Shown here: piece after piece, positions 4,655 to 49,799 of the stretch
How positions within the stretch are numbered: position 1 is the first letter of the stretch
Layout: every line of letters begins with the position of its first letter
Source: an uncultured Clostridia bacterium
GTDB lineage: Bacteria > CAYTYR01 > UBA6262
Assembly (NCBI GenBank): GCA_964441745.1
Contig: CAYTYR010000011.1
Coordinates: 1-64,000 of the forward strand
DNA length: 64,000 nt
Reading direction: 5' to 3'
Translations under genes and position numbers: made by a program
The notes under the pieces: generated by a model
Database searches by the model: none
Told to the model about the DNA's origin: nothing
What the model saw: the letters and a program-made list of their open reading frames with translations, nothing else

Positions 4655-5272
4655 TTATTTTTTTATTTTTTGTTTGATCAGTTTGAGCATGGAAAAAGCG
4701 TCCCGGGATTCTTCTTCCAGGCGGTCATTGATATTCTTTTCCGCTTCCTGGTAATAAGGTATATACACTTTTTCCAGGGCATTGACCTTCCTGATGGTCT
4801 TTTGCGCTTCCTGAGCCAACCGTAAAGTGGTGATCTTCAGTTCGGCCAGCCTGGCCAACAGGACCAGTATTTTCTTGAACCGGTCAGTCGCATCCTCAGC
4901 CGCCATATTCACTTTGAGGGAGCTGAAATAAGGCGGATGGTCTTTCATCTGGAGATTGATCACCGGTACTGACACGCCCATCACGCGGCGCGAGGTCAGG
5001 CGCAGGTTCGCTTCTGTTTCCACTGCCAGGGACATTTCTGAAAGTTTTTTCCGTCCCATAATGACCGTAGCGCGGTTCACCGCGGCATAGCCGGCAGCCA
5101 GGGCAGCGTCGGTTTCTTCTTCGGTTTTTTGCATTTTATGGATGATGGCGCCGATCTCACCCAGCAGGATCTTCCGTTTTTCATCCAGCAATTCATAACC
5201 TTCCCTGGTGACAGACAGGTTCTTTTTCACTTTCAACAGGTTGGTTTTGGTCGCTGCTATATTGATCCGCAT
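4655..5272 (-). CDS. ntpD: V/A-type ATPase subunit D
   Basis: ATKTNLL...GYELLDEKRKIL, VMGVSVP, KTIRKVNALEKVYIP. Confidence 0.93.
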   Translation of the reverse strand: MRINIAATKTNLLKVKKNLSVTREGYELLDEKRKILLGEIGAIIHKMQKTEEETDAALAAGYAAVNRATVIMGRKKLSEMSLAVETEANLRLTSRRVMGVSVPVINLQMKDHPPYFSSLKVNMAAEDATDRFKKILVLLARLAELKITTLRLAQEAQKTIRKVNALEKVYIPYYQEAEKNINDRLEEESRDAFSMLKLIKQKIKK

Positions 5273-5275
5273 ATA

Positions 5276-6658
5276 CTATTTACCCTTATAATATTTGTTA
5301 AGCGCTTCTTCCTTGACCCGGACCAGCTCGCTCTTAGGCAGGGTACTCAGCACTTCCCAGCCGATCTCCAGGCTTTGTTCCAGGCTCCGGCGCTCATAGT
5401 ATCCCTGGGATACGAATTTCCGTTCAAACGCATCGCCGAATTGCAGGTATTTCTGGTCCAAGGGCGACAGCTCTTCCTCGCCGATGATAGCAGCCAGGGC
5501 CCGGATATCCTTGACCTGGGCATACGCGGCAAACAACTGCGACGCTAAAGCCGGATGGTCATCCCTGGTCTTGCCCTCGCCGATATTGTCTTTCATCAGG
5601 CGGGACAGGGAAGGCAGTCCGGCGATCGACGGATAGATGCCGCGGCTGTGCATTTCCCGCTCTAGCACTATTTGTCCTTCAGTGATATATCCGGTCAGGT
5701 CCGGCACCGGATGCGTAATGTCATCGTTGGCCATGGTCAATATCGGTAATTGGGTGATCGAGCCGCTCACTCCCTTGATCATACCAGCCCGTTCATACAA
5801 ACTGGCCAGGTCGCTGTATAAATATCCCGGGTACCCTTTCCTGGCGGGTATCTCGCCCCGGATCGTGGATAATTCTCTTAACGCTTCGCAATAATTGGAC
5901 ATATCAGTCATGATCACCAGCACGTGCATATTTTTCTTGAACGCCAGATATTCGGCGCAGCTCAGGGCCAGGCGCGGGGTCATCAACCGTTCAATAGAGG
6001 GGCTGTCTGCCAGGCTGAGGAAAACTGTTACTCTTTCCAGTACGCCTGATTCTTCAAAACTCTTGATAAAATACCGGGCAGTATCGTATTTGATGCCCAT
6101 ACCGGCAAAGACCACAGCGAAACTTTCGCCTTTGACCTGGGCCTGGCGGGCGATCTGCGTCGCCAGCAAGTCATGCGGCAGGCCGCTGCCGGAAAATACC
6201 GGCAGTTTTTGTCCGCGCACCAGGGTATTCATCACATCAATAGCCGAGATCCCGGTCTCGATAATATTATTAGGATAATCGCGGGCCGTGGGATTGATCG
6301 CCATGCCATTCACATCCACCAGCTCGTCATACGCCGGCCGGGGCATTTTGTCCAGGGGATTACCAACACCGTCGAAAACGCGTCCCAGGACATCTTCCGA
6401 AACCCCGAACAGGAGTGGTTTTTCCTTGAACCTCACCTTGGATTTGGCAATGGAAAGGCCGCTGGTGCCGCCCAGGACCTGCACCACGGCAAATCCCTTG
6501 CCTACTTCCAGGGTCAGGCCGATGCGCGTCTTGCCGTCATCATCGATTATTTCCACCAGTTCATTATAACCGACATTGTGGATATTCCGGATGATGAAGA
6601 TCGGCCCGACTATTTCCTGCAGTCCCACATATTCAATTAAATTCCCGTAATTTTTCAT
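5276..6658 (-). CDS. ntpB: V/A-type ATPase subunit B
   Basis: [65 protein letters not shown]. Confidence 0.96.
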
Positions 6659-18614: not shown

Positions 18615-18804
18615 CAAATAAAAAAAGACGCCTTATTGTAATCCTTCACGGATCCTAATAAGACGCCTGCGTCTTTGTTTCCTACCGTAAACAATAATAG
18701 CGTTCTGACACCTACTCAGAACGCCTTTGTTTTTGCCCCTTCATCGGAGCCATATTCTATTGCCTTACATCTATACAAGTAAAAAACAGGCACTCTTGGT
18801 AACT
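18615..18804. repeat. 190-bp direct repeat copy 1 (promoter plus attenuator leader)
   Basis: Identical by eye to 27583-27772. Confidence 0.95.
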
Positions 18805-18821: not shown

Positions 18822-20540
18822 CTAAAAAAGAAAATATCGCTGCGCCAAAGAAAGTTCTTTTGCCGGTAGACAATTTAGTAACCTGCCATCAGCCCGGACT
18901 TCATAATTCTGATAGTTAACCTCGATCTTTGGTACCCAGTTATTATAAAACATGTCTTTCTTCATTATGCCGCGGCAACGGCTCACTGGAAAAGTCTGTT
19001 TAGCTAAATTTAATTTTTTCGCGATCCCATTCTTATAAGCGTTCTGTGAAACAAAGGTAATACTATTTTCCTGAATAGCCCGCCCGAAACCGCCAAACAT
19101 GTATTTACCCATTATTGGCTGTACCGTGGGAATAGAAGCATTCGCTTCACCCATCGCCGCATAAGTTATAAATCCGCCTTTGATCACCATCTCTGATTTT
19201 ACTCCGAAAAAAGACGGTTTCCAAAGAACCAGATCGGCAAACTTACCTTCTTCTATAGAACCAAGATACTCAGAAATACCATGAGTGATCGCCGGATTAA
19301 TAGTATACTTTGACAGATAACGTTTCAAGCGATAATTATCATTCCCTGAAACATCTTCTTTTAATTTACCGCGTTGCTTTTTCATCTTATCCGCTAATTG
19401 CCAGGTACGGGTGATCACCTCCGCGGTTCGCCCCATAGCTTGCGCGTCTGAGTTAATAATAGAGATCGCTCCCAGATCATGCAAAATATCTTCCGCGGCT
19501 ATGGTATTTGCCCGGATCCTGGAAGTGGCAAAAGAAAGATCTTCCTTGATCTTATGATCAAGATGATGACAAACCATTAACATATGCAGATGTTCATCAA
19601 CTGTATTTATGGTATAAGGCAGCGTCGGAGTTGTCGAAGAACATATAATATTTTTCTCGCCGCAAAGTTTTATTGTATCCGGCGCATGTCCGCCGCCAGC
19701 TCCTTCTACATGATAAGCATGGATACTGCGGCCGTCAATGGCCGCGATAGTATCCTCGACAAAACCAGCCTCGTTCGGGGTATCGGTATGCAGACATGCT
19801 TGGATATCATATTCAGCAATGACTTTTAAGCATGAATTTATAGCTTCAGGAGTTGAACCCCAGTCTTCATGCAGTTTCATCCCAATTACACCCGCCTCTA
19901 TTTGCTCTTTTAAAGGATCACGAAAAGAAGAATTTCCTTTCCCGCAAAGTCCAAAGTTCATCGGAAAAGCTTCCACAGATTTAAGCATTTGCTCAATATT
20001 CCATTTACCTGGCGTAGCCGTAGTGGCAAAGGTTCCGGTAGCCGGGCCAGCGCCCCCGCCGATCATCGTCGTGATCCCGGAAAACAAAGCTTCTTCTACG
20101 ATCTGCGGCGAGATAAAATGCACATGAGAATCAATCCCTCCGGCAGTTACTATCAATCCTTCTCCGGCAATCACTTCAGTAGAAGTTCCCACGATCATTT
20201 TCCTATCCACTCCATCCATGATATCAGGGTTGCCGGCTTTACCAATGCCAGCTATTTTTCCGTCCTTTATACCGATATCAGCCTTAACTATTCCCCAATA
20301 GTCCAGGATCAATGCGTTAGTTATCACCAAATCGAGGACGCCTTCTGTGCGGGTAAAACGCGCGCTTTGTCCCATACCATCGCGAATAACCTTACCCGCG
20401 CCAAATTTATTCTCATCACCATAAACAGTATAATCCTTTTCCACTTCAGCAAAAAGGGCTGTATCGCCCAATCTCACTTTGTCTCCCACAGTGGGACCAT
20501 AAATGGCTCCATATTCTTTCCGTTTTATATTATAGGACAT
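18822..20540 (-). CDS. ureC: Urease alpha subunit
   Basis: [47 protein letters not shown]: all Ni ligands present. Confidence 0.97.
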
Positions 20541-27582: not shown

Positions 27583-27772
27583 CAAATAAAAAAAGACGCC
27601 TTATTGTAATCCTTCACGGATCCTAATAAGACGCCTGCGTCTTTGTTTCCTACCGTAAACAATAATAGCGTTCTGACACCTACTCAGAACGCCTTTGTTT
27701 TTGCCCCTTCATCGGAGCCATATTCTATTGCCTTACATCTATACAAGTAAAAAACAGGCACTCTTGGTAACT
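27583..27772. repeat. 190-bp direct repeat copy 2
   Basis: Identical by eye to 18615-18804. Confidence 0.95.
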
Positions 27773-33082: not shown

Positions 33083-34762
33083 TTATCCTTTATACTTACT
33101 CGTTATCGGCATTCTCCTGTCCTTACCAAAGGACTTCGGCGTGATCCGTACTCCCGGCGCTGACTGCCGCCGTTTATACTCGCTCTTGTCCACCATCCCT
33201 ACTATTTTATCCACTAACTTCTGCTTGAACCCTTTCTTCACTATCTGGTTCACGCTCTTGTCTTCCTCAATGTATTCCTTCAGGATCGGGTCCAGCACCT
33301 TGTACTCAGGTAGAGTATCAGTGTCTTTCTGGTGCGGCCTTAGTTCCGCGGTAGGCGCTTTTTTCAGCACATTCACCGGTATCACAAAGCCCTTACGGTT
33401 CCGGTACTTGGCTAATTTATAGACCAGGGTTTTCGGGACGTCTTTGATCACCGCGAAACCTCCGGCCATATCCCCATACAGGGTGGCATAACCGGTACTC
33501 ATCTCTGATTTATTACCAGTCGCTAACACCAACCAGCCAAATTTGTTAGAAAGAGCCATCAGGATCGTGCCCCTGATGCGCGCTTGCAAATTCTCTTCCG
33601 CGATATTCTTGGCCTCAGCCGCGAACACCGGGTCCAAAATCACTAAATATATGTTATATAACTGCTCGATCGATATCGTCATTAGCTTAATGCCCAGCTT
33701 GTAGGCCAACTGCTTAGCATCTATTTCACTCGCTTTGGATGAATACCGTGATGGCATGAACACTCCTACCACGTTATCCTTGCCCAGGGCATCAGTCGCC
33801 AGGGTCGCTACCAGCGCCGAATCCACGCCGCCGCTCAATCCCAACACTACTTTCTTGAACCCATTCTTATTCACATAATCTTTCAATCCTAATAGCAGCG
33901 CCTGGTACACTTCTTCTACCGGCTCCAGCATTTTCACATGGCTCTTAGGCAAAGGCAGTCTTTCTTTGACTGATATTTCCTTATCGATCAGGACTGCATT
34001 CACTTTCTTGCCCCTGACTTCGGGGATTTCCAGATCAGTGACCAGCAGTTCCTCTTTAAAAGCTTTTGCCAGGGTCACCAGCCGGCCTTTCGGATCCACT
34101 ACAATGCTCTGGCCATCAAAAACCAGCTCATCCTGCCCGCCTACCAGGTTAGCATAGACTACATGCACATTATTCTCTTTCGCCTGGCTCTTCACTATCT
34201 TCTCTCTCACCTTGATCTTGCCTGTATAATATGGTGAAGCATTAATATTCAGTATCAGCTTAGCTCCGGCCTTGGCCTGCTTATGGGTCGGCCCAGTGGC
34301 ATGCCATATATCCTCACAGATGTTCAAGCCAAACAGTATCTTGCCAAATTGGTACACAGCTGATTGTTCACCTGAAGTAAAGTATCTCTTTTCATCAAAT
34401 GGCCCGAAATTGGGCAAGATCATCTTATGCGCTACGCCTTTGACTACCCCATTATAGATAATAGCCGCGGCATTATAGAGATTACGGCCTTTTTGGTCCA
34501 CAAAGCCCACGATAGCCAGGATATTGTCCACACCCTTGGCCAATTCCTTCAAAGCAGCCAGGTTATCCTGGACAAATTGCGGCTTGAGCAGCAAATCCTC
34601 AGGGGGATACCCAGTCAGCACCAGTTCAGGGAATACCACCATATCCGCGCCAAATTCCTTGGCCTTCAGTATGGTTTGGCTAATCTTCTTGGCATTGCCC
34701 TGAAGATCCCCAACAGTACTATTAACTTGTGCTATTGCGATTCTAAGCTTGCCGTCTTCCAC
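33083..34762 (-). CDS. nadE: Glutamine-dependent NAD+ synthetase
   Basis: Nitrilase domain FPEL..TGYPPEDL, EKRYF, ICEDIW; synthetase domain GLSGGVDS, ENLQARIRG, TGNKSE..GYATLYGD, SEYKRRQ. Confidence 0.96.
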   Translation of the reverse strand: MEDGKLRIAIAQVNSTVGDLQGNAKKISQTILKAKEFGADMVVFPELVLTGYPPEDLLLKPQFVQDNLAALKELAKGVDNILAIVGFVDQKGRNLYNAAAIIYNGVVKGVAHKMILPNFGPFDEKRYFTSGEQSAVYQFGKILFGLNICEDIWHATGPTHKQAKAGAKLILNINASPYYTGKIKVREKIVKSQAKENNVHVVYANLVGGQDELVFDGQSIVVDPKGRLVTLAKAFKEELLVTDLEIPEVRGKKVNAVLIDKEISVKERLPLPKSHVKMLEPVEEVYQALLLGLKDYVNKNGFKKVVLGLSGGVDSALVATLATDALGKDNVVGVFMPSRYSSKASEIDAKQLAYKLGIKLMTISIEQLYNIYLVILDPVFAAEAKNIAEENLQARIRGTILMALSNKFGWLVLATGNKSEMSTGYATLYGDMAGGFAVIKDVPKTLVYKLAKYRNRKGFVIPVNVLKKAPTAELRPHQKDTDTLPEYKVLDPILKEYIEEDKSVNQIVKKGFKQKLVDKIVGMVDKSEYKRRQSAPGVRITPKSFGKDRRMPITSKYKG

Positions 34763-37421: not shown

Positions 37422-37526
37422 AGTTGCAGCTTCTCCTTATTAATTGATATTCTTTATATTAAGAAAACACAAAAAGCAATCCGGTCTTCCAGGATTGTTT
37501 TGATTATTATTCCCCCATGAGACGCC

Positions 37527-40253
37527 TTACCATTTTTTGCCCTTTTTCCCCAATAACGGCTCTGTGTATTGCTTATATAGGCTAAATAAGTACTCAATCC
37601 TGACTAAATCACTGCCAAAGGGAGTCTTCCGGTAGCATGAATCCACTGCTTTATCTAGTTCTTGATGGGCTTTCAGCAGTTTTGGCGGCATAGTAATCGG
37701 ACTATACAGATCAGCTAGTGATGAATCCATAAATTCTTTCCGAATTTCTATAATGGATTTAGTTTTGTCTTCAACTCGTTTTATCTGTTCTTTTGTTGGT
37801 TTTTCTGGCCAAGGGAAATTGTTATAAACAATATCATTTGAATATCTGTAATCCCCTTTTAACCTACCACAAACGAATCTAACCCAAGTCATATGCATAA
37901 TTGAGCTTAATACACCCAGGTGGTTTAGTGTCGCATTTTCTACCACTACACAACTGTCACTGGCTATAAAGCTTTTATCATAAATACTAAATGGGATATA
38001 TCGCCTATTTTCCGATGAAACCCTTGGAATAACTATATAACTTGATTTTGGCTGTCTAATTTCACCAAATAATGTCGGGAAATTAGCTAATTCCTTTGTT
38101 GTCTCCCGTGTACTTTCACTACGATATTGCTTAACTCGTTCCACTCTACTTAAAATCTCTGGTAGCTGTTTCAATTCACCTGGCTCTATATCGACCAGCC
38201 AAATACACCATCTTTTTTCATTATTAAGATACTCCCTGGCGCTAATTAATGGCCTAATATACTTTTTTGACTTTGGTTCCGTTTTTACTAATTTATCTTT
38301 TTCTTCATTGGTTAATAGGAAGTTACCATCATCATTAGGCATACTACCAAAGCTTATTTCTGGCACATCACATATAGGCTTTGACCTTTTTAAAATGACA
38401 AAATCATCCCCTGGGGCAAGATATGGATTAATGCTCGTTTCTCTTACTTCATGCGCCTCGGATTTTGGTGTTTCATAATCATATAGGATTTTCTCTTTGG
38501 TATCATAATTAGCAAATCCTATTATTGTCACAAATACATGCGCTTTCCCCTTAGCTTCACTTCCCCATTGAAAGGTACGATGCGCAAAATGGATTTTTAT
38601 GCCATATTTATTATAGAGCTCATTCCATAATATGCCTACTTGCTCACCCTGGGTTATTGAGTTGGTCGAAACAAAAGCAACTTTTATTCTTGTTCCTTGT
38701 ATAAATTGCGCGGCTTTAATATACCAAGAAGTGACATAGTCTAATACGCCATATCCTTTTATACCGTTAAAGATCATATCCATATCATCACTTTGATCCT
38801 GGCTTCTAAACTGCTTCCCTACAAATGGCGGATTCCCAAGTATATAACTTAAATCTTTCTTTTTTACGATATCTTCCCAATTTATTCTCAAAGCATTTCC
38901 GATTACTATCTTTGCAGTATTTCTTAATGGCAACCTTACAAAGGACTGGCCAAACTCCTCAGACAATTTTTGATTCATTATATGATCCATAAGCCAAAGT
39001 CCAACCTGGGCAATCTTTGCAGGAAATTCCTCTATTTCTATGCCATACATAGAATCTACATCAATTTTAGAGAGAATGCTTACATCTAATTCTCTGTTTT
39101 TATATAGTATTTTAAGCACTTCAATCTCTAATTGCCGCAATTCCCTGTATGTTATGATCAGAAAGTTACCGCAGCCGCAAGCGGGGTCAAAGAACCTCAA
39201 AGACGCAATTTTACTGTGAAATTCCTGCAATTTCTTCTTATCTTTCTTGGTTTTCTCAAATTCTGCGTATAAATCATCTAAAAACAAAGGTCTTATCAAC
39301 TTCTGTATATTCTTTTCAGAAGTGTAATGCGCACCAATATTCCTTCTCTTCTCCGGATCCATCACAGACTGGAATAATGATCCGAAAATGGCCGGAGAGA
39401 TATTATTCCAATCAAAATAGCAGCTACTTAATAGAGTTTTTCTCATTTCACTGTTAAAAAAAGCTACAGGCAGGCTTCTTTCAAATAGACTGCCGTCAAT
39501 ATAGCGAAATTGGGCCAAATCCTCATCAAGAGTTGCAGGTCTTTTTTCTTCTGGAGTATTCAATACTTGAAAAAGTGTCGCAATTTGAGAACCCAGATCG
39601 CTGCCATCTACATTAGTTTTGCGTTCTATATAGTCGCAAAAGGTATTCTTTTCAAATATCCCAGAATCATCAGCAAAGAGGCAAAATAATAGCCGAACAA
39701 GCAATAATTCCAGATCATGGCCTGTATATCCACTGGCCGCTAATTGGTCATGCAGCTTACCCATCAGCTCAGCCGCTTTTATATTAACCGGATCTTGATC
39801 TTTAAATTCTTTTTTCCTATATCCAGCTATAAAACCGAAAAGGCGTATATTCTTATATAAGTCTTTTATCAGAAATTCATGCTGTGTCTTTTCGTCCAGA
39901 TCGTATAGCCTGAATTTGCTGAAATCTGAGACAATTACGTATTTTGGCAGTTCATATTCTTCTAAATTCGCAAAGTAATCTAGTGCTTGGGAATAGGCTG
40001 TATCCAAATCCTTCCCTTTTGACTTATGCTCTACAAGCAGTGTCCCCTTCCAGAATAAGTCAATACTGCCTCTTTTATCACCTAGTTTTTGTACCGGTTC
40101 TTCAAAAACAGCTACCCTTCTCCTGGAAATCCCAAAAATATCAAAAAATTGATTCCAGAATGTCTGTTTTTCGGCATTTTCTCTGCTTTCATCAGACCAT
40201 TCCTGTGAAAATGCCAATGCTCTTTTCTTTATCTCATTCCAACTCAGCGCCAT
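37527..40253 (-). CDS. MmeI-like type IIL restriction-modification enzyme (nuclease-m6A MTase-TRD)
   Basis: MALSWNEIK.RA..F..EW, IDLFWKGTLLVEHKS, GAHYTSE.NI, DPACGCGNF, GNPPF, RYS...VYNNFPWP. Confidence 0.92.
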   Translation of the reverse strand: MALSWNEIKKRALAFSQEWSDESRENAEKQTFWNQFFDIFGISRRRVAVFEEPVQKLGDKRGSIDLFWKGTLLVEHKSKGKDLDTAYSQALDYFANLEEYELPKYVIVSDFSKFRLYDLDEKTQHEFLIKDLYKNIRLFGFIAGYRKKEFKDQDPVNIKAAELMGKLHDQLAASGYTGHDLELLLVRLLFCLFADDSGIFEKNTFCDYIERKTNVDGSDLGSQIATLFQVLNTPEEKRPATLDEDLAQFRYIDGSLFERSLPVAFFNSEMRKTLLSSCYFDWNNISPAIFGSLFQSVMDPEKRRNIGAHYTSEKNIQKLIRPLFLDDLYAEFEKTKKDKKKLQEFHSKIASLRFFDPACGCGNFLIITYRELRQLEIEVLKILYKNRELDVSILSKIDVDSMYGIEIEEFPAKIAQVGLWLMDHIMNQKLSEEFGQSFVRLPLRNTAKIVIGNALRINWEDIVKKKDLSYILGNPPFVGKQFRSQDQSDDMDMIFNGIKGYGVLDYVTSWYIKAAQFIQGTRIKVAFVSTNSITQGEQVGILWNELYNKYGIKIHFAHRTFQWGSEAKGKAHVFVTIIGFANYDTKEKILYDYETPKSEAHEVRETSINPYLAPGDDFVILKRSKPICDVPEISFGSMPNDDGNFLLTNEEKDKLVKTEPKSKKYIRPLISAREYLNNEKRWCIWLVDIEPGELKQLPEILSRVERVKQYRSESTRETTKELANFPTLFGEIRQPKSSYIVIPRVSSENRRYIPFSIYDKSFIASDSCVVVENATLNHLGVLSSIMHMTWVRFVCGRLKGDYRYSNDIVYNNFPWPEKPTKEQIKRVEDKTKSIIEIRKEFMDSSLADLYSPITMPPKLLKAHQELDKAVDSCYRKTPFGSDLVRIEYLFSLYKQYTEPLLGKKGKKW

Positions 40254-40363
40254 TTAAACTCCTAGTAATAATTCACAAGCTATTTATTCTAGTAAGCATG
40301 TATTTAACCGATTTTCCACCGCGTAGGTGGAATATGTCAAACTAATTTGAAACTTCCCCTTTT

Positions 40364-40485
40364 TTATTCGGAACTGGTCTCGATGCTTCCCTTATCTTCG
40401 TCATCTTTCATTTCCGGAAGTCTCAATAAATTCCTTATTTCTAAAGCCAAACCATTATTTTTTACTATTGCATCTTGAAAAACAA
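40364..40485 (-). pseudogene. Probable 3' gene fragment cut at a repeat module
   Basis: Coding-like tail (VFQDAIVKNNGLALEIRNLLRLPEMKDD...) begins right after TGACCCCG; the upstream part of the ORF is repeat sequence. Confidence 0.45.
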
Positions 40486-40571
40486 CGGGGTCAGCCCTTG
40501 AAATGTGAAATGATTCAACCCCTTCGGCAACCGTTACTGTCAACCGCGTAGGTTGAGGTTGTAGCAAGAAG

Positions 40572-41606
40572 TTATTGTCCTCCAGCTTGTTTTAAAAGCA
40601 GCTTAATCTCAGCATTTGCATAGGCTATTGCTGTTTTTCCTTTTTTGTCTTTCAGAAGAGGATTTGCTTTGTGTTCCAACAACATTATAACAATATCCTT
40701 ATAACCTTTTTTTGTCGCTGCAATTAATGCTGTCATACCTTCATCGTCGTTAGGTACAATATTCGGGTCAGCGCCGCGGGTTAATAATATCCTTGAGATG
40801 TCTTTGTTCCCGTACCAAGCTGCAAACATAAGGGCTGTACGGCCTAAATGATTAATGGCATTTACTTCTGATCCAGCTTCTACCAGTATAGATGCAGTTT
40901 TTGAGTGCCCCTCCGCAACAGCTATCATTAACGGAGTCCATCCATTGTGTTTGGACTTAGCATTGATATCCGCACCTTTATTTAGCAACAATTTTACTAT
41001 TGAATCATGTCCCTGCTGGGCTGCTTCATACAGTGCGGTAGTTTCTTCATCCCAAGTTTCTTCTATGTTGGCTCCCGCCTCAAGCAGAGCCTGGACAATT
41101 TCAATATTCCCTCTTACTACTGCAGGAATCAATGCTGTCATGCCTTTCTTATTCTTCTCATTTATTCTTGCTCCGTTTTTTATCAAAGCCCTTACACTAG
41201 CGAGGTCATTGCTTCCGGCAGCAAGCATTAGGGGAGTTGAGCCATAAAATTCATTCTTCACATTCACATCTGCACCGTTCTCTAATAGGAATTCAGTTAC
41301 ACTTGGATGACAATAAAAAGCAGCGGCTGTAAGAGCTGTATCGCCATATTTGCTCCTTGCATTTATGTCAGCGCCGGCTTTTAGAAGAGCCTTAACAATA
41401 CCTAAATTCCCATGTCTTGCAGCTGTTATGAGGGCGGTTTCACCCATACTGCCACCGCGTTGGTCGACTGCTACACCTTCGTGTAGCAGTGCTTGAACTT
41501 GTGCACTATTGCCCTGCTCTGTTGCCTTGATGAGTGGATTCATGGCACATGAGCAAACAAGTGGCAATAGTAACAGGATAACTAACGATTGAAAATGGCG
41601 TTTCAT
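40572..41606 (-). CDS. Ankyrin-repeat lipoprotein
   Basis: Lipobox LVCSC; about nine G.TALxxAA...GADxN repeats. Confidence 0.92.
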   Translation of the reverse strand: MKRHFQSLVILLLLPLVCSCAMNPLIKATEQGNSAQVQALLHEGVAVDQRGGSMGETALITAARHGNLGIVKALLKAGADINARSKYGDTALTAAAFYCHPSVTEFLLENGADVNVKNEFYGSTPLMLAAGSNDLASVRALIKNGARINEKNKKGMTALIPAVVRGNIEIVQALLEAGANIEETWDEETTALYEAAQQGHDSIVKLLLNKGADINAKSKHNGWTPLMIAVAEGHSKTASILVEAGSEVNAINHLGRTALMFAAWYGNKDISRILLTRGADPNIVPNDDEGMTALIAATKKGYKDIVIMLLEHKANPLLKDKKGKTAIAYANAEIKLLLKQAGGQ

Positions 41607-41736
41607 ATTATACTCCATCCCTAAACGACAAAAAGCAACCCGGACTTCCTGGATTTAACCGCTACTGTCTCCGCCAACAAACTCTGGCGGACTCCTTACA
41701 GTCGAACATTAAAAGCGATCGTAGGTTGACACTTAG

Positions 41737-42096
41737 TTACTTCTCTACCTCTTGGCTATCAATATCCAGGTGAAAATGGTGCAGTAACCGGTGCAGAATA
41801 GGCGCGACCAGAATCACGATAACCCCAAAAAAGGCTAAGCTGCTAAAGATAGCATAAATAGAAGTAAAGATCTTGCCCGCTGCAGTGTTTATAATTGATA
41901 CTGTCCCTAACCCAGTCATGATCAGGACTGAATTCAAGAAAGCATCAATCCAAGCCAGATCCTCCAGAAAGTGAAAGGCCAATGTCCCGGTGGTAATGGT
42001 TCCTGAAAGAACTAGCAGTGAGGTCCCTGCGCTTCGCAGCATGCGCAGCATAAATTCCTGGTTTGAAAGCAATGGTTGTTTATAATGCTCAAACAT
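41737..42096 (-). CDS. Small 2-TM/pore-helix ion-channel-domain protein
   Basis: WIDAFLNSVLIMTGLG, AGKIFTSIYA; no GYG filter. Confidence 0.7.
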   Translation of the reverse strand: MFEHYKQPLLSNQEFMLRMLRSAGTSLLVLSGTITTGTLAFHFLEDLAWIDAFLNSVLIMTGLGTVSIINTAAGKIFTSIYAIFSSLAFFGVIVILVAPILHRLLHHFHLDIDSQEVEK

Positions 42097-42353
42097 TTAA
42101 CCTCCATAAAAAAAAGCGGGGATAGCCCTTGAAATGTGAAATGAATCCTCTCATAATGACAAAAAGCAACCCGGACTTCCTGGATTGCTTTGATTTTAGT
42201 CCTTTCTTTCTCCTTGGACCCTTCTTTGTGGGATCGGGCCATTCAAATAATTGACTTATTTCCTTATACTCCACTATCCCCTTTATTGTCAAACAAAATC
42301 ACCTTTTCAACCAACTCCGTTCCACCTACGCGGTGGAAAGCGGTTCTTTTTTT

Positions 42354-42618
42354 TTACTTTCTCATCATATCCTGGGCCAATCGATGTAATTCGCTATTCG
42401 CCAGTGCTGCTACTTTCTTTTTCACAACTCTGTAAAAATATTCCCGCTCTGTCTTGGTCATTTTCTCCCCTTTAAGCCGTTTCAAAAACAGATCCCTCTG
42501 CTTGGGGGATAATACCTGCGCCAAAGCAAACTCCAGATCAAATTCGCTTTTTAATTCCAGGTATTTTGATTCGAGCAGTCCTTTAAAGTCTTTATTTTCA
42601 GCTCCCAGCTTATTATAG
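42354..42618 (-). pseudogene. 3' fragment paralogous to the gene at 44692-45387
   Basis: Shares QVLSPKQR.LFLKRLKGEKMTKTEREYFYRVVKKKVAALAN.ELHRLA; homology stops ~10 bp from CGGGGTCAG at 42629. Confidence 0.8.
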
Positions 42619-42836
42619 CCAAGATCATCGGGGTCAGGCACTGAATCGTGAAAGTAGCCCCTCTCTCCGCCACCATACTCGGCGGGTGGCCTTCGGCCAA
42701 ACATAAAAGCAACCGGGACTTCCTGCCTTTCCCCTACTTTCCCGTCAAAAGACGCTGGCGCTGTGTCCGCCGATCTTTTTGGCGGAGACTCCTTTCAGTC
42801 AAACCGCTACTGTCAATTTCGCAAATTGACACCTGG

Positions 42837-43130
42837 TTACATTTTATTTAAGCGGGATAGCATCTCCTGATAAACTTCTTTATCTCTGCGCAAACCGACT
42901 TTCAGGACAAGAACCTGCACTGTTCCCTTGTCAATCCTATAGATAACCCGGTAATAAGATATCTTGAGCTTCCAAAATCCTTTTAGGCCATGTTTTAGGC
43001 CTTCGCCGTAACCTTCCGAGTCGACACTAAGTTTTTTGTTAATTGTCTTTAAAATAATAAACTGATCATGTTTGTTGATCTTCTGAAAATCTTCTTCAAT
43101 GACCAGTTTATGTATACTAACCCGCCACAT
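42837..43130 (-). CDS. relE: RelE/ParE family toxin
   Basis: GEGLKHGLKGFWKLKISYYRVIY.I......VLKVGLR..VY. Confidence 0.88.
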   Translation of the reverse strand: MWRVSIHKLVIEEDFQKINKHDQFIILKTINKKLSVDSEGYGEGLKHGLKGFWKLKISYYRVIYRIDKGTVQVLVLKVGLRRDKEVYQEMLSRLNKM

Positions 43131-43132
43131 TA

Positions 43133-43414
43133 TCAGCGTCCAACTTTCTTCAAAGCTTCCTCAATGCTGATAAAATCCTTGCCCGTGCTTTTCTCAAATC
43201 TCTCCCTGGCAATATGACCCATAACTATATCCTCGGCCAGGTCCAGGAAGGATTCGTTTTTTTCATATTCTTCATTGGACATAATGACCGCTACCGGCTT
43301 ATTACGTTTTTCTATCACCACCCGGGTATGCCGCGTTTTCTTAAGCAGTTCGTCAAGCTTGGTGCGCAATTCAGAAACGCCGATCAAAGTGGTATCTTGT
43401 TTAACTGTAAGCAT
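43133..43414 (-). CDS. Phd/YefM family antitoxin
   Basis: IGVSELRTKLDELL...VVIEKRNKPVAVIMS.EEYE; promoter TTGACA-17-TATATT upstream. Confidence 0.88.
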   Translation of the reverse strand: MLTVKQDTTLIGVSELRTKLDELLKKTRHTRVVIEKRNKPVAVIMSNEEYEKNESFLDLAEDIVMGHIARERFEKSTGKDFISIEEALKKVGR

Positions 43415-43854
43415 CTTATCCTCCTATCTATCCTATTACAAATATATCACCTATCATTTTATTTGTCAATTAAAATGTCTTTTTAATTGTCAATTCATAA
43501 TTGTTTCAATTTTATTTAATTACCCCTGAAAACACAAAAAGGAAGGCAACGGGGTCAGCCTGCTGAATCGTGAAAGTAGCCCCCTAACCGCCACCATACT
43601 CGGCAAGTAGCCTTCAGCTAAACAACAAAAAGCAATCCGGACTTCCTGCCTTTCCCCTACTTTCCCGTCAAAAAGCTCTGGCGGGCGACTTTCAGTCGAA
43701 CCACTACTGTCCACCTCGGAGGTTGACACCTGGGTACTTCAACCTCTTTTCCACCGCGTAGGTGGAAAGACGGTTCTCCTTACAGCCAACCGCTTATCTC
43801 AACTACGCCGCGCCCGCCAACTCTTTAGTGGCGGGTAGGTTGAGATATGGTTAT

Positions 43855-44298
43855 TTACTTGCTTTCGAGGTATTTTGCGTCCAGTTTATCTTTTTCCCTA
43901 TTGGTAGATTTCTTGTTTTTAATGAGGTTGGCTTTGGAAATGAAGGGGATTTTAAGCTGTTCAATCTCTATTACTTCCTTATCCTGGTAGGCCTGATCAA
44001 AATCCACTCCATCGATCATAGTGATCAAGTCAATCCTTCGGGGGGCTACACCTATCTGGAAGATAATTCCCTTCTCGGTGAAGGTCTCAGGTGTGATTTG
44101 CGAAAGCGGGGCTCCGAACTCTGTCAGGGATTTATGAAGTTTTGTTGAGTTTGCAGGATTGGCCGCGACCCATATGTCAAAATCACCGGTTGCCCTGGGA
44201 TAGCCATAGGCAGCCATAGCATACGCGCCAACGACAAGAAATTGCACATTATTTTTTAATAAGATTTGTAATATTTCTTTGTAGTCTTCGTTCAGCAT
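43855..44298 (-). CDS. Nucleotidyltransferase-like protein (DUF6036-like)
   Basis: LVVGAYAM..YG.PRATGDFDIWV, RIDLI, LI.NK....R.KD..D. Confidence 0.8.
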   Translation of the reverse strand: MLNEDYKEILQILLKNNVQFLVVGAYAMAAYGYPRATGDFDIWVAANPANSTKLHKSLTEFGAPLSQITPETFTEKGIIFQIGVAPRRIDLITMIDGVDFDQAYQDKEVIEIEQLKIPFISKANLIKNKKSTNREKDKLDAKYLESK

Positions 44299-44437
44299 GA
44301 GTTTCTTTCTGTAAGGACCATATCTCCGCGGTTAATTCCCACATAAAAGATATGCGTCCTTCTGGTGAAAGATTGACATATTCTTCATCATGGCTTGCCG
44401 ACTTTGTAAGCTTTACTATATTCTTCTGTATTCTCAT
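44249..44437 (-). CDS. Small partner protein of the nucleotidyltransferase, likely leaderless
   Basis: LSPEGRI...WELT...RLQRNI; TTGAAT-17-TATAAT ends 6 nt before ATG 44437. Confidence 0.65.
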   Translation of the reverse strand: MRIQKNIVKLTKSASHDEEYVNLSPEGRISFMWELTAEIWSLQKETHAERRLQRNITNLIKK

Positions 44438-44557
44438 AATTGTATTATACCACAAAATAATACTCTATTCAATGAGGAAAAGAACCAATTTTCCACTTCG
44501 TAGTTTTAGGGAACTTCCTGCCTTCCCCCTACTTTTCATCTACTCCCAGCTTTATTC

Positions 44558-44695
44558 CTACTTATTCTTAAATAGGGTATTACTGGCATATCGTTGATAG
44601 CGGCTTGTCTCATTTGCGGCGCCTTTAATTGACCTTAGATTGCCTTTTTTGAAATTCTTTAATATCTCTTTCTCTTCTTTTGTAGGATTATTCAT
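44558..44695 (-). pseudogene. Truncated antitoxin paralogous to 53366-53629
   Basis: MNNPTKEEKEILKNFKKGNL...RYQRYASNTLFKNK* versus EKEMLKDFEQGKL...RYQRYASNTLLKNKRINIR; runs into a repeat module. Confidence 0.75.
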
Positions 44696-45387
44696 TTTTT
44701 CAACATCCCCAGAGCCAATCGATGTAATTCATTATTCGCCAGGGCTGCTACTTTCTTTTTCACGACTCTGTAAAAATATTCCCGCTCTGTCTTGGTCATT
44801 TTCTCCCCTTTGAGTCTTTTAAGAAATAGTTCTCTCTGTTTAGGAGATAATACCTGCGACATAGCAAATCCCAATTCAAACTCATTTTCTAATTCCATGT
44901 GTTTTGATTCAAGTAGATCTCTAAATTCTTGTGTTTCAGATCCTAGCTTATTATAGTAATTCCGAAACGTATTCATCACACGTTGGCTTGACATCAGAAA
45001 GTCACCGACCTTAAATTCAGCTTCCTCGGCAAAGCTTTTCTCCAACATCTTATATACTTCATCGCTGACCGCTAATTTTTTCTTTAATCCCTCAGCCGCC
45101 AGAAATTCTACTCCCGCAACCTTATAAACCACCAGAGATACTGCTACAAGCTCATCAAACCATTTTGTTTCCAGCGATTCCCCAAGATATTTCTTTGCTT
45201 CTTCGTAAGGGACCGCGCCAAGAACTTCGGCCTTTAATAGCATGACCGGGAATCCCTCCCAAAGTCGCAAATCCCTGCTTCTGACGACATCAGCCAGAGT
45301 TTTGCCGGCATTTTCATCTCTCTCGGTCTCAAATAAGTTAAAACCTAATTTTGCCACTCTTTTCAATAGGTCATTATTTTCCATCAT
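44692..45387 (-). CDS. Hypothetical protein, partner of upstream nucleotidyltransferase
   Basis: ~230 aa, overlaps the NTase stop; basic C-terminal helical segment. Confidence 0.7.
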   Translation of the reverse strand: MMENNDLLKRVAKLGFNLFETERDENAGKTLADVVRSRDLRLWEGFPVMLLKAEVLGAVPYEEAKKYLGESLETKWFDELVAVSLVVYKVAGVEFLAAEGLKKKLAVSDEVYKMLEKSFAEEAEFKVGDFLMSSQRVMNTFRNYYNKLGSETQEFRDLLESKHMELENEFELGFAMSQVLSPKQRELFLKRLKGEKMTKTEREYFYRVVKKKVAALANNELHRLALGMLKK

Positions 45388-45979
45388 GAACACCTTCTTC
45401 TTTTAATCGCTCCAGGAAACTCTCTAAATTCTTATTCATTCTATCCGGATTAACATCATAAGATGCCGTTTCCCGAAATCTCTGCTCTAATCGATCACGA
45501 TCCAATGCTTCCCCTCTGGCTCTTGCCAGGGTTAGACAATCTGCAAAATCAATCTCACTGCCTCTGAATAACTTGCTTAAGATCAAGTCATAATCATTTA
45601 ATACCCCGAGATAAAGATAAGTGAATTCCTTGATCAGAGTATTATTCCCCACTGCCAGTGGCGATTCAAGTAATTCAGTTGTATGTACTTTTTTGCCGCG
45701 GAACAGGTCAAATACAAATTTATCATCTCTGGCCCAACCTACACCGCTAGTTGGACTATAGCCTAATTGAACCAGGACCTTTAATAAATAGTCATATTCC
45801 TGTTCAACTGGCACTACCAGATCAATATCCTTAGTTGATGGTTTCAAGCCTAATAGAGTTAGTGCTGTGCCACCACAGGCAATTAAGTGAACTTTCTTAT
45901 TCAAGAATCCATTCCACATACTTAGAGCTTCTAATAATCCTTCTTTATCTATTCTATAATCTTGCACAATACACTCCAT
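45374..45979 (-). CDS. Nucleotidyltransferase-like protein (DUF6036/AbiEii-like)
   Basis: IACGGTAL.L..LK.STKDIDL, DLILSKL.RG...D..D. Start may be GTG at 45967. Confidence 0.8.
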   Translation of the reverse strand: MECIVQDYRIDKEGLLEALSMWNGFLNKKVHLIACGGTALTLLGLKPSTKDIDLVVPVEQEYDYLLKVLVQLGYSPTSGVGWARDDKFVFDLFRGKKVHTTELLESPLAVGNNTLIKEFTYLYLGVLNDYDLILSKLFRGSEIDFADCLTLARARGEALDRDRLEQRFRETASYDVNPDRMNKNLESFLERLKEEGVHDGK

Positions 45980-47399: not shown

Positions 47400-48179
47400 T
47401 TATTTACCCAATTTATTTAATGCCACTTCTGCCGCCTTCCGGCCAGAATAGAGCATAGCGCTAAAGGTAGGCCCCATCCTGGGGACTCCATATGCCGTAG
47501 AGACGCTCATTCCGCAGATGATCAGCCCGGGAAATATTTCCCCGGATTTCTCTACCACCTGTTCCTCGGAAGACTCCACATCCATCGGCCCAAAATCAGC
47601 GATCTGGAGCAATCCCCTTTTAGCCAGGCTTTTGCAGACACAGGCATCATGCCCGGTAGCGTCAATGACTACCTTTGCCTCCACTGTGACCGGATCCAGG
47701 CAGGAGATCGCCCGTGGCATATAGGCCACCGGTGTCCAGTTGATCACCGCACCTTTCACTTTCTTGTCCTTATACAGCACATCATCAAACCGGGTCAGGT
47801 TAAGTATCCTAACCCCGGCATCTGCTGTCGCGGCGATCAACTTGGCGCATATTTGCGGCGCGCTGCCGATAAAAAGCCCTTTAGAAGCCTCTCGGCACGG
47901 AATGCCGAATTCTTTGAGCAATTGTTCACCGGGAGAGCGAAAGGTCAGGGTATTCATCAGATACCCGCCGGTCCAAAAGCCGCCTCCTAGATAGTTATTG
48001 CTTTCTATCAAAAGCACTTTTTTGCCGGCTTTGGCCAGGTCATGGGCAGCCACCAGCCCGCTTGGGCCGCCGCCGATCACAATCACGTCGTTTTTCAAAT
48101 ACTGGCTGAACCAGGAATAGAAATCCTGCGCCATAGCCCCGGTTATTTCTGCTTCACTTACCTTACTGAATTTCATCAC
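47400..48179 (-). CDS. thi4: Thiazole synthase Thi4 (Cys-type)
   Basis: GGGPSGL, LGGGFW.GG, GAVINW, SCLDP, DATGHD, PRMGPTF..M..SG; TPP riboswitch upstream. Confidence 0.92.
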   Translation of the reverse strand: MMKFSKVSEAEITGAMAQDFYSWFSQYLKNDVIVIGGGPSGLVAAHDLAKAGKKVLLIESNNYLGGGFWTGGYLMNTLTFRSPGEQLLKEFGIPCREASKGLFIGSAPQICAKLIAATADAGVRILNLTRFDDVLYKDKKVKGAVINWTPVAYMPRAISCLDPVTVEAKVVIDATGHDACVCKSLAKRGLLQIADFGPMDVESSEEQVVEKSGEIFPGLIICGMSVSTAYGVPRMGPTFSAMLYSGRKAAEVALNKLGK

Positions 48180-48195
48180 TACCTCCTTTTAAAAT

Positions 48196-48399: not shown

Positions 48400-48942
48400 T
48401 CAAGATATTTTATAGAACATGTTCAAAGAGGTAGAGCCTATTGCCTGGTCAAAATCTTTCAGCCATTTTACGATATAACTCTTATCAAATTTGGGGTTCT
48501 TTAAAATGATCGTTTTAACATCCTCAATATCTCTCTCCCTGCCGGCAATCATCTTATGAATGATCAAGTCTTCCAGGGACGCGAATCTTACGTTTTGCCT
48601 GCCCAGTTTTATCTTTTTAGCTCGTTTAATAGCCTGCTGTTCATAAGGTGTATATGAGAAAATAAAATCCACTCTAATCCCAGTTTTTTGATCAACAGCC
48701 GGAAAAACCATAGTTTGCTTGACAAAATCGTCGATGTTATCGGTCAAAATTGTAAGGCCCAGTTTCTTGGCCACTGTCTTTATTTTATTCACATCTTCTG
48801 CGCCTATTCCCAGGGTGATATCTATATCTTTGGTTAATCTTGGCTCGCCATAAATCAATACGGCCTGCCCGCCGATTACCATATAGGGAATATCGTTTTT
48901 ACTAAGTTCTATGGCTAGCTTTGCGAGTAGCTGCTGGAACAC
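48400..48942 (-). CDS. Nucleotidyltransferase-like protein (DUF6036-like)
   Basis: YMVIGGQAV..YGEPRLTKDIDI, RVDFIF, EDLIIHK..AGR.RDIED. Confidence 0.82.
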   Translation of the reverse strand: MFQQLLAKLAIELSKNDIPYMVIGGQAVLIYGEPRLTKDIDITLGIGAEDVNKIKTVAKKLGLTILTDNIDDFVKQTMVFPAVDQKTGIRVDFIFSYTPYEQQAIKRAKKIKLGRQNVRFASLEDLIIHKMIAGRERDIEDVKTIILKNPKFDKSYIVKWLKDFDQAIGSTSLNMFYKIS

Positions 48943-49132: not shown

Positions 49133-49187
49133 TTAGAACTCCTTTATATATAAGTATTATACCATAAAAAGGCCTATAAATATACCC

Positions 49188-49799
49188 TTATTCCACAGCG
49201 GAGGTGGAACGGCGGTAAACCGTATAAAACAGGATGGCGGCAACGACCGCGCCCAGGGTGTCGGACAACATATCCTTCTGCGCGTCCCAAATATCTCCCT
49301 GGCTTCCTAATATCGCTATCCCCGCGTTCGGGTTGGCAGTAACGGCATATATCCATTCAAACAGTTCGTAAAGCAATGCCACGGTACAGATGGTGAATAC
49401 GCTAAAAAGACAGGTCAATACCAGTGAATTTGAAAGTTTCCTGCGCTGGATGAATTCCCCGATCGGGAAAGCGTAGAATCCAACCGTAAAATGGGCTATC
49501 CGGTCATAATGATTGCGTTCGAAACCGAAAAGATCGGTAATAAAGCCAAAAGGCACCAGGGCGAAAGAATAATGGCCGCCAAAAGTGTGCATGAAAATAA
49601 GAAAACTCATCATGATGTAGGAAAGATTGGAGAACTGGAATTTCCGGTAAGTAAATACCAGTACGAGAACGATCGGCAGGATGGTCATGTTCTCCACGAA
49701 CCAGACTGAACGGTCATAAGGACTGACAGCCAAAACGCAGAAAAAAATGAGGTACGCTAATAAAAGCATTCCCGGCAATTTCGCCGTTTTTTCATTCAT
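49188..49799 (-). CDS. DUF2238/YjdF-like membrane protein
   Basis: DR..W..EN, H..GGHY....VP, RNHYDR..HF, YE..EW, LG.QGD.WDAQKDM. Confidence 0.88.
   Translation of the reverse strand: MNEKTAKLPGMLLLAYLIFFCVLAVSPYDRSVWFVENMTILPIVLVLVFTYRKFQFSNLSYIMMSFLIFMHTFGGHYSFALVPFGFITDLFGFERNHYDRIAHFTVGFYAFPIGEFIQRRKLSNSLVLTCLFSVFTICTVALLYELFEWIYAVTANPNAGIAILGSQGDIWDAQKDMLSDTLGAVVAAILFYTVYRRSTSAVE

Follow-up and report, generated by a model that had tools for sequence, protein, structure and literature searches.

What are the short hairpins that trail the genes of an accessory island in an uncultured Clostridia bacterium: integron recombination sites, or the mark of another system? The window in which they lie is the whole 64,000-nt stretch analysed here (contig CAYTYR010000011.1 of assembly GCA_964441745.1, positions 1 to 64,000 of the forward strand). 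Between 40.3 and 43.9 kb, on the minus strand, gene ends are followed by short hairpins with an AAC(C)...(G)GTT foot. A first-pass annotation of the sequence had described them as an array at 40302-43856 and had proposed either an atypical cluster of attC sites lacking integron integrases (CALIN) or a different gene-capture system that uses hairpins on single-stranded DNA. We conclude, at a probability of roughly 78%, that the hairpins resemble repetitive extragenic palindromic (REP) sequences and are the cognate hairpins of a clade of ~217-aa Y1 HUH transposases similar to the REP-associated tyrosine transposases (RAYT). As the text of Quentin et al. (2018, PMC6006769) describes it, a REPtron is a tnpA-REP gene with members of its own REP family on its flanks, and these REPs usually bear a 5' GT[AG]G tag. 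The system is best read as REPtron-type without the GTAG tag, a variant of the known REP/RAYT repeats and not a set of integron sites, because the same repeat family flanks a RAYT gene here and in many phyla.

The hairpins belong to a repeat family that is dispersed in the genome. A 19-nt core, allowing at most one mismatch, occurs eight times in the 2.07-Mb genome (G000), versus zero times for the reversed control. We built a covariance model, R1, from 12 copies of this genome and scanned the genome with it, a check that had been proposed along with the array; about 22 distinct sites on 11 contigs were recovered at E<0.05, 12 of them the seeds, which is far above chance. R1 had no match in 34 genomes outside the family. 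It replaced an earlier loose regular expression (AAC-stem-GTT), whose 287 loci were mostly chance. Five genomes of the same genus (congeners G001 to G005, with assemblies 91-98% complete) gave 11, 0, 17, 17 and 26 R1 matches respectively, counts that include some both-strand duplicates. Most copies in G000 stand in accessory contexts, namely the window island, 48-51 kb of contig C8, a restriction-modification (RM) island on C3 and toxin-antitoxin (TA) pairs. A few are found beside core genes: behind serA (C9), behind pspC next to leuD (C26) and at queE/NUDIX (C31). The first-pass annotation had held that hairpins throughout core-gene intergenic regions, together with invariant gene content among relatives, would speak against an array of captured genes; a few copies do lie beside core genes, and the content varies among relatives.

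Other repeats were also seen. Two TTCCACC hairpins, at C8:6430-6520 and C9:83240-83330, are flanked on either side by about 25 nt of common sequence that includes a promoter-like TTGACAG box, and this larger repeat unit stands once behind a 315-aa RAYT gene with a helix-turn-helix (HTH) tail and once behind serA. A separate 19-nt perfect palindrome, ATGTGCAA-TTT-TTGCACAT, recurs just behind genes or hairpins of these islands (G000 C8:48898 and C8:50856, G003 L048:7516, and G004 L056). Another dispersed palindrome, with TCTAAAC...GTTTAGA ends, came from a crude attC scan (C10:12539-12598, C14:4270-4357 and C25:15457-15551).

Within the window R1 found eight sites. Seven sit where the array had been placed, and the eighth is a degenerate TTCCAC-type copy at 49181-49218(-) (24.1 bits), outside the coordinates originally noted. 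Three hairpins are stacked with no gene between them at 43700-43853, so the gene-less stack that the annotation had reported at 43695-43856 is real. The first of these in the direction of transcription, at 43789-43853(-), is a 65-nt long form with a CTCAACC stem (23.3 bits; fold z -3.5 / -4.8); it begins 1 nt past the stop codon of the gene at 43855-44298, and its loop holds a second small hairpin (CCGCCA..TGGCGG). The second, at 43738-43776(-), has a TTCCACC stem and a TACGC loop (44.6 bits; fold z -3.2), and the third, at 43700-43736(-), has a GTCAACC / GGTGGAC stem (24.2 bits). The hairpin at 42803-42839(-), with a GTCAATTT stem and a GCG loop, folded and scored 40.4 bits, and its TAACC foot provides the stop codon of the ParE/RelE-like gene (overlap -3). 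Sites 42803 and 43738 are seeds of R1 and therefore match by construction. Behind the small open reading frame (ORF) at 42354-42704 lies a TTCCACC hairpin at 42311-42347(+), which scores 29.5 bits on the plus strand versus 15.3 on the minus strand; its loop is flipped relative to the neighbouring hairpins. A TCAACC-stem hairpin at 40530-40562(-) (22.7 bits) follows 9 nt past the stop codon of the ankyrin gene, and a copy with a TTCCACC stem, a TACGC loop and a degenerate 5' AACC foot at 40304-40339(-) (29.1 bits) lies 50 nt upstream of the MmeI gene.

Degenerate or interrupted hairpins had also been claimed behind the channel, ankyrin and nucleotidyltransferase (NTase) genes. R1 recovered the latter two, but the site behind the channel-like gene (about 41660-41745, minus strand) is seen by eye only: a TAAC-GTCAACC 5' half and a GAC-AGTAGCG-GTT 3' half are split there by an inserted GGAGTCCGCCA..TGGCGGAG module, R1 gives no match and the fold (z -0.83) is not better than that of shuffled sequences. 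Folded as single strands, the hairpins have an AACC/GGTT foot, a small internal loop and a stem of 7-9 bp, with z from -2.6 to -4.8. Six of the eight sites are 33-39 nt long with a 3-5 nt loop and no bulged base, and several copies are paired throughout. Three stem types are present in the window, the TTCCAC, GT[CG]AATTT and CTCAACC families; the two types distinguished at first reading, taken with the CTCAACC/GTCAACC copies, therefore become three RAYT-linked hairpin families.

The evidence for an enzyme came from a search of the genome with Pfam Y1_Tnp (PF01797), which gave nine matches. Two of these are ~217-aa genes, and both are bracketed by the hairpins, as had been anticipated by the suggestion to look for HUH/Y1 RAYT-like genes beside other copies (2/2 flanked on both sides). 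One lies on the minus strand of C6 from 4808 to about 5480, between hairpins at 4772-4810(-) and 5487-5522(+). The other, C8:48198-48851(+), lies between a 72-nt long form at 48109-48180 and a hairpin at 48851-48889(+). In both genes the stop codon falls inside the hairpin foot. The two copies are only 56% identical and are thus not recent transposition products. The HUH motif P-T-H-[IL]-H and the Tyr motif R-Y-[VI]-H-L-N-P are kept in 7/7 sequences of the genus, and the closest solved structure is E. coli TnpA-REP (4ER8, E 6.8e-5). The short class did not match NF033573 (transpos_IS200). Longer Y1 genes of G000 encode 315-331 aa and carry a Bac_DnaA_C-like HTH tail.

The same layout is found in the congeners (G001:C37, G004:C44, and G005:C49, C125 and C142). 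All five mapped short RAYT loci have a hairpin at the stop codon, and three of them also have one just upstream. The stem type differs with the transposase lineage: the C8-like genes have TTCCAC stems at their flanks, the orthologues on C6 and G005:C125 have GT[CG]AATTT stems, and the RAYTs of G005:C49 and G004:C44 have CTCAACC and GGACACC stems, respectively. Of the three stem types in G000, two match its own two RAYT genes and one a RAYT of G005. Full-length short RAYTs occur in G000, G001, G003, G004 and G005, which are the same five genomes that carry the hairpins; hairpin-free G002 gave no full-length short RAYT, its top match being partial (85 bits). The locus on G004:C44 (L056 2383-3426) holds a full-length short RAYT, a hairpin, an 83-aa C-terminal RAYT fragment and another hairpin, an arrangement that is a partial tandem duplication at the hairpin.

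The association extends well beyond the genus. A scan of species genomes with the RAYT alignment gave 587 candidate stretches and 541 relatives, in Omnitrophota, Elusimicrobia, Planctomycetes, WOR-3, Berkelbacteria, Saccharibacteria, Nitrospirae and others, and 80 loci were kept. R1, although built from G000 only, had 106 matches in these loci at E<=0.1; we dropped 13 (12 opposite-strand duplicates and one overlapping match). Of the remaining 93, 77 fall in two small windows flanking the RAYT gene that make up 7.4% of the bases searched. A flank match was found at 42/80 loci, downstream in 36, upstream in 36 and on both sides in 30. From the stop codon on, the flanks in many phyla read TAACC (or TGAACC / TGACC), a stem, ..CC-TACGAG-GG.. 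or a related loop, the returning stem and GGTTA. Among 82 aligned matches the inner helix is 98.2% paired, with six of its seven pairs changed on both sides. Doubly changed cells numbered 134 versus a shuffle mean of 51; none of 500 shuffles reached the observed value and slid controls collapsed, although fitting the alignment to the model favours pairing. The outer foot is poorly aligned (63% paired) because the spacers vary.

The hairpins are also placed preferentially at the ends of genes. We measured the distance from the stop codon of a co-oriented ORF to the start of the hairpin at 66 sites of at least 19 bits (G000 and the loci from G001 to G006, the last being a genome of another genus), with crude open frames of at least 60 codons as ORFs and strand-flipped hairpins as the control. 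In the model orientation 23 sites overlapped the stop codon or began within 10 nt of it, versus 3 when flipped; 14 versus 9 lay at 11-60 nt, 18 versus 22 at 61-200 nt, and 11 versus 32 had no such ORF. Another hairpin lies at most 60 nt upstream at nine of the 66 sites. On G004:C13, direct tandem stacks of two or three hairpins, differing in subtype, stand behind each of four successive genes.

Such placement invites a purely RNA-level explanation, in which hairpins in 3' untranslated regions stabilise or terminate transcripts and have spread by ordinary duplication, with no part played by a transposase. That 37/66 sites lie no more than 60 nt past a co-oriented stop codon and that the stems covary would both suit it, and E. 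coli REPs reportedly act at mRNA 3' ends. It leaves unexplained, however, why RAYT genes are bracketed on both sides, including upstream, at 30/80 loci, and why each RAYT lineage goes with its own stem type. Two copies, at 42311 and C6:5487, have the opposite orientation to the gene beside them. A U-tract is missing from the hairpins, and separate terminator-like hairpins with T runs stand nearby. Rfam has no family at the hairpins, either across the whole window at the gathering threshold or for the hairpins and the adjoining ~150-nt repeat mosaic at 40000-45500 with E<=1. We therefore consider it very unlikely that RNA function accounts for the repeats by itself; a role of the transcribed hairpins at mRNA 3' ends would be compatible with the REP/RAYT reading as a secondary one.

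The foot of the hairpins is what first suggested an integron. The inverse core sites of attC, R'' (RYYYAAC) and R' (GTTRRRY), form the R stem, and attC sites are about 57-141 nt long with an unpaired central spacer, extrahelical bases and a variable terminal structure. Several features are shared: the hairpins here are imperfect, have AAC...GTT ends and close small accessory genes that are co-oriented, the stop codon falling within TAAC or next to it; use of single-stranded DNA is presumed, and arrays occur without an integrase nearby. The small co-oriented TA, NTase and RM cargo is typical of chromosomal integrons, and two long-form hairpins reach 65-72 nt. That no integrase accompanies the array proved correct for the window; the genome, however, does encode an integron integrase (IntI) on C1, at 405 bits against a TIGR02249 cut-off of 265.

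This intI belongs to a complete-looking chromosomal integron outside the window (C1:52400-58110) with a divergent array of about five cassettes, whose genes are HNH-like, a 200-aa ORF, MNT/HepT, a membrane protein and BrnT/BrnA. A Y1 transposase gene fragment also lies inside this array. The cassettes are separated by four classical attC sites of 64-80 nt (TCTAAC...GTTAGA and similar), whose folds show an R stem of 6-7 bp, a spacer, a bulged L stem and a variable loop. The intI gene itself has one in-frame TAA at the conserved ..HYS-x-RTE.. position.

Comparison with this resident array speaks against attC identity. R1 has no match in the C1 array, and the attC sites there are unrelated in sequence to the hairpins. 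IntI scored above the cut-off in none of the five congeners, in the assemblies searched, while hairpins are present in four. A crude attC script recovered two of the four C1 sites and nothing at 40-44 kb of the window, with 36 other noise-like matches. The inverse core gave a mixed picture in the hairpins: AAC and GTT were present, the paired foot comprised only TAACC/GGTTA (4-5 bp) and RRRY beyond GTT occurred in some copies only. At 35-39 nt the common forms are too short for attC, and the short forms have no extrahelical bases. Nor are they bound to a gene as a cassette's site would be: two or three hairpins can be stacked behind one gene, the same gene can be followed by different hairpins, and the hairpin is not inherited with the gene. 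In many phyla, moreover, the hairpins bracket RAYT genes. On these grounds the proposal of an atypical CALIN was rejected, and we regard it as extremely improbable that an integron integrase uses the hairpins as very short attC sites.

The remaining proposal, a different gene-capture system based on single-strand hairpins, fared better in part. Its link to an enzyme was borne out by the RAYT genes bracketed in this genome, in its congeners and across phyla; capture of genes is a putative feature, on which the evidence comes from the accessory intervals. The interval NadE..VWA spans 11.3 kb in G000, holds other genes and hairpins in G003 and G004, and holds other genes without hairpins in G002. 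Further variable spots among the congeners are queE..NUDIX, the region downstream of trmJ, and pspC-leuD. At pspC-leuD, G000 and G004 differ by an extra hairpin with a 68-aa ORF directly behind the pspC TAA. At trmJ a hairpin-RAYT-hairpin unit replaces the last codons, so that the protein end changes from ..DGKG to ..DGKNHQL.

In contigs of three other metagenomes, modules of the window (90-99% identity) are arranged in different orders, and the joints fall at hairpin edges. One joint, from 42306 to 43854, attaches the gene at 43855-44298 to the 42311 hairpin on the latter's far side (depth 84, side 52). Another, from 42839 to 43546, omits the Phd-RelE module precisely as far as the TAACC foot (depth 84, side 31). 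These joints were read from contigs only, which come from other organisms in three of the four sets, and parts left uncovered and sides shorter than 30 nt were not used. The fourth set, from the same study as the likely source, shows the same arrangement as the window in pieces and no joint. Searched against the metagenome contigs, the Phd antitoxin had only three relatives, at 51-52% identity, too distant for testing cassette mobility.

One interpretation of these rearrangements is that the transposase shuffles genes: two co-oriented hairpins would act like the ends of an IS200/IS605-type element, and RAYT would excise the module between them as single-stranded DNA and reinsert it beside another hairpin. 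Each interval between hairpins holds one or two accessory genes in the same orientation, both in the window and at G004:C13, G003:C46/C31 and G000:C8. The same hot spots (the NadE, queE, trmJ and pspC spots above) hold different modules and hairpins in the congeners, the metagenome joints coincide with hairpin edges, and C8-type RAYT genes occupy different loci in G000, G001 and G004. A 197+155-aa gene pair common to G000, G003 and G004 (87% nucleotide identity) points the other way. Downstream of it lies a TTCCACC hairpin in G000 and a GTCAATTT hairpin in G003, while G004 has no R1 match there and a long-form hairpin by eye only; the upstream hairpins differ among the genomes as well. Since the pair has different hairpins in each genome, the hairpin is not a stable module end.

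In addition, G002 has a variable island at the same place without hairpins, and none of the loci compared gave a clean filled/empty pair bounded by two hairpins: only one hairpin accompanies the pspC-leuD indel, and trmJ offers no empty site, as G002, G003 and G004 each hold different DNA there. Most of the joints have short sides (20-50 nt) and come from other organisms, and ordinary recombination between short repeats could explain them. Because of the unstable pairing of hairpins and genes, the lack of a clean filled/empty pair and the foreign, short-sided joints, we consider Y1-driven shuffling unlikely. If it were true, RAYT would move modules between co-oriented hairpins to hairpin sites behind stop codons, and the arrays would be functionally analogous to the cassette arrays of integrons but need no tyrosine recombinase, an integrase-free Y1/HUH counterpart widespread in Elusimicrobia-like bacteria, Omnitrophota and the candidate phyla radiation (CPR). 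The best reading is plainer: REP-like hairpins colonise and mark swap-prone intergenic spots.

How, then, does the REP/RAYT assignment compare with described systems? The nearest are E. coli TnpA-REP (YafM; structure 4ER8) with its REPs and bacterial interspersed mosaic elements (BIMEs), and the REPIN-RAYT systems of Pseudomonas. Shared with these are a Y1 HUH enzyme with the Tyr motif Y...NP, flanking palindromic hairpins, dispersal of the same hairpins in intergenic DNA, a hairpin type specific to each transposase lineage, several divergent RAYT/hairpin pairs per genome, and hairpins set in BIME-like mosaics with other repeat modules. The hairpins differ in that the foot is TAACC/GGTTA and the conserved part is the apex, in that many copies begin in or at a stop codon, in that the RAYT loci vary between congeners, and in the host phyla (Elusimicrobia-like, Omnitrophota, CPR and others).

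The IS200/IS605 family and its gene-less derivatives, the palindrome-associated transposable elements (PATEs), likewise combine a Y1 HUH enzyme with hairpins on both sides and solitary hairpin derivatives, and share a strand-specific single-strand chemistry that we would expect here too. Unlike their TnpA, which has about 150 aa and the Tyr motif Y...Q, the ~217-aa enzymes have extra domains and Y...NP, and the two flanking hairpins are alike and not distinct left and right ends. IS200/IS605 elements also come in multiple near-identical copies, in contrast to the 56% identity of the two G000 genes. In the text of PMC6006769, which divides TnpA-Y1 into 12 subclasses, the Y...NP motif defines class 2, and subclass 2.1 (TIRYT) has the motif Y[IV]HLNP and no REPs. 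The short genes share this motif, and the longer Y1 genes of the genome, with 315-331 aa and an HTH tail, fit the subclass. The short clade has no HTH tail and, in contrast to what the paper reports for subclass 2.1, is bracketed by REP-like hairpins. Atypical tag-less structures are described in the same text for subclasses 2.6 and 3.

Several observations weigh against the REP/RAYT assignment. No copy has a GT[AG]G tag 5' of the stem; only the GTCAA-type copies carry CAGTAG, and it is located 3' of the stem. The HUH motif of the short RAYTs, T-H-[IL]-H, differs from that of the known systems, and T-H-x-H is absent from the HuH motifs in Table 1 of PMC6006769. Among NCBIfam families the short RAYTs match NF047646 (REP_Tyr_transpos) best, but their scores of 57 and 65 bits fall short of the equivalog cut-off of 80. 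Copies are few, about 22 sites versus the hundreds of classical REPs, and they are single or in direct tandem, with no inverted REPIN doublets. Nine of the 22 sites lie in one island among single-gene modules, which is more like a cassette array than like scattered REPs. At 38/80 RAYT loci the narrow R1 model had no flank match, though diverged hairpins are visible by eye at many of them. In G003 the short RAYT has a different type of hairpin beside it, with a ACCCGCAT loop, so that the R1-type hairpins of this 94%-complete assembly lack a cognate gene in it, and G006 has two hairpins and no short RAYT.

The text of PMC6006769 makes no mention of Elusimicrobia or Omnitrophica, although its supplementary tables may list members of the clade. 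In a literature search on REPs in Elusimicrobia, Omnitrophica/Omnitrophota or CPR, none of the papers listed named REPs, which is no proof that the system is undescribed.

By analogy with E. coli TnpA-REP and IS200/IS605 TnpA, a mechanism can be proposed. RAYT would bind the folded hairpin on single-stranded DNA, recognising the conserved apex (..ACC-TACGMG-GGT.. or subtype variants) together with the TAACC/GGTTA foot, and would nick the foot and rejoin the strand, so that hairpins could be copied or moved one at a time. Insertion may be directed to positions immediately after stop codons, with the hairpin in the sense orientation of the preceding gene and often beside an existing hairpin, and such landing beside existing hairpins would build the co-oriented tandem stacks. 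The hairpins collect in swap-prone accessory islands, here the NadE..VWA interval. In the accessory islands, hairpin positions coincide with junctions at which the gene modules of relatives differ.

The island of the window is flanked by the core genes NadE (33083-34762) and Thi4/RsgA. The cargo had been described as co-oriented TA, RM and single genes, and Pfam upheld this description, except for the NTase label of the 147-aa ORF, which has no Pfam family. All of the cargo genes lie on the minus strand. An MmeI-type RM gene (37527-40253) matches MmeI_Mtase (3e-94) and four more MmeI domains, and the ankyrin-repeat protein gene (40572-41618) matches Ank_2 (1e-92). The small ion-channel-like membrane protein gene (41737-42096) matches Ion_trans_2 at 0.003, below the cut-off. 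The Phd/YefM antitoxin (43133-43414; PF02604, 7.7e-12) and the ParE/RelE-like toxin (42837-43130; PF05016, 1.7e-5) form a pair spanning 42837-43414. The 147-aa gene (43855-44298) is taken from the ORF list.

The small ORF at 42354-42704, which also has no Pfam family, is probably a gene fragment, because its 3' 269 nt are an 83% copy (repeat family D1) of 44688-44956, the 3' end of a 233-aa gene. The duplicated segments, 42350-42618 and 44688-44956, lie 2.3 kb apart, the former in front of the 42311 hairpin, and the 233-aa gene adjoins a DUF6036 gene. One metagenome contig directly joins the contexts of the two copies.

The spacers between genes and hairpins contain other short intergenic repeats. 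A mosaic of about 150 nt at 43540-43690(-) consists of repeat families D7, D8, D12 and D13, with a terminator-like GCAA.CCGG..TTGCTTTTT and a ..TTTCA...GGCTGACCCCG segment; it has a second copy at 42621-42790 and a partial copy at 44510-44535. Spacer mosaics are also present at 37469-37505, 41628-41664 and 42159-42195. Their modules are the terminator-like GCAA.CC.GGAAGTCCGG.TTGCTTTTT, ..TTTCA(A/C)..GGCTGACCCCG.. and the GGAGTCCGCCA..TGGCGGAG hairpin; this last module is also found inside the loops of long-form hairpins, and the congeners carry the same spacer modules. Elsewhere in the window, two identical 42-nt hairpins with a 9-bp stem and AAAC...GTTT ends lie 9 kb apart (18690-18731 and 27658-27699). 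The Rfam search also matched 5_ureB_sRNA at 20093-20387(+) (82.8 bits versus a gathering score of 40); this family is an antisense RNA of Helicobacter ureB, so the match is probably conserved ureB coding sequence.

AAC...GTT hairpins that follow small accessory genes can look like a CALIN without being one, and integron counts in uncultured phyla could wrongly include them. The window points to a tag-less hairpin family with a conserved apex, tied to a large RAYT-like clade that falls outside the HuH motifs in Table 1 of PMC6006769, and the 541 relatives belong mostly to phyla in which REP biology is unstudied. Placement at stop codons, direct tandem stacking and the coincidence with module junctions yield testable predictions on how a Y1 transposase may choose its targets, and offer a way to test whether such hairpins promote gene shuffling.

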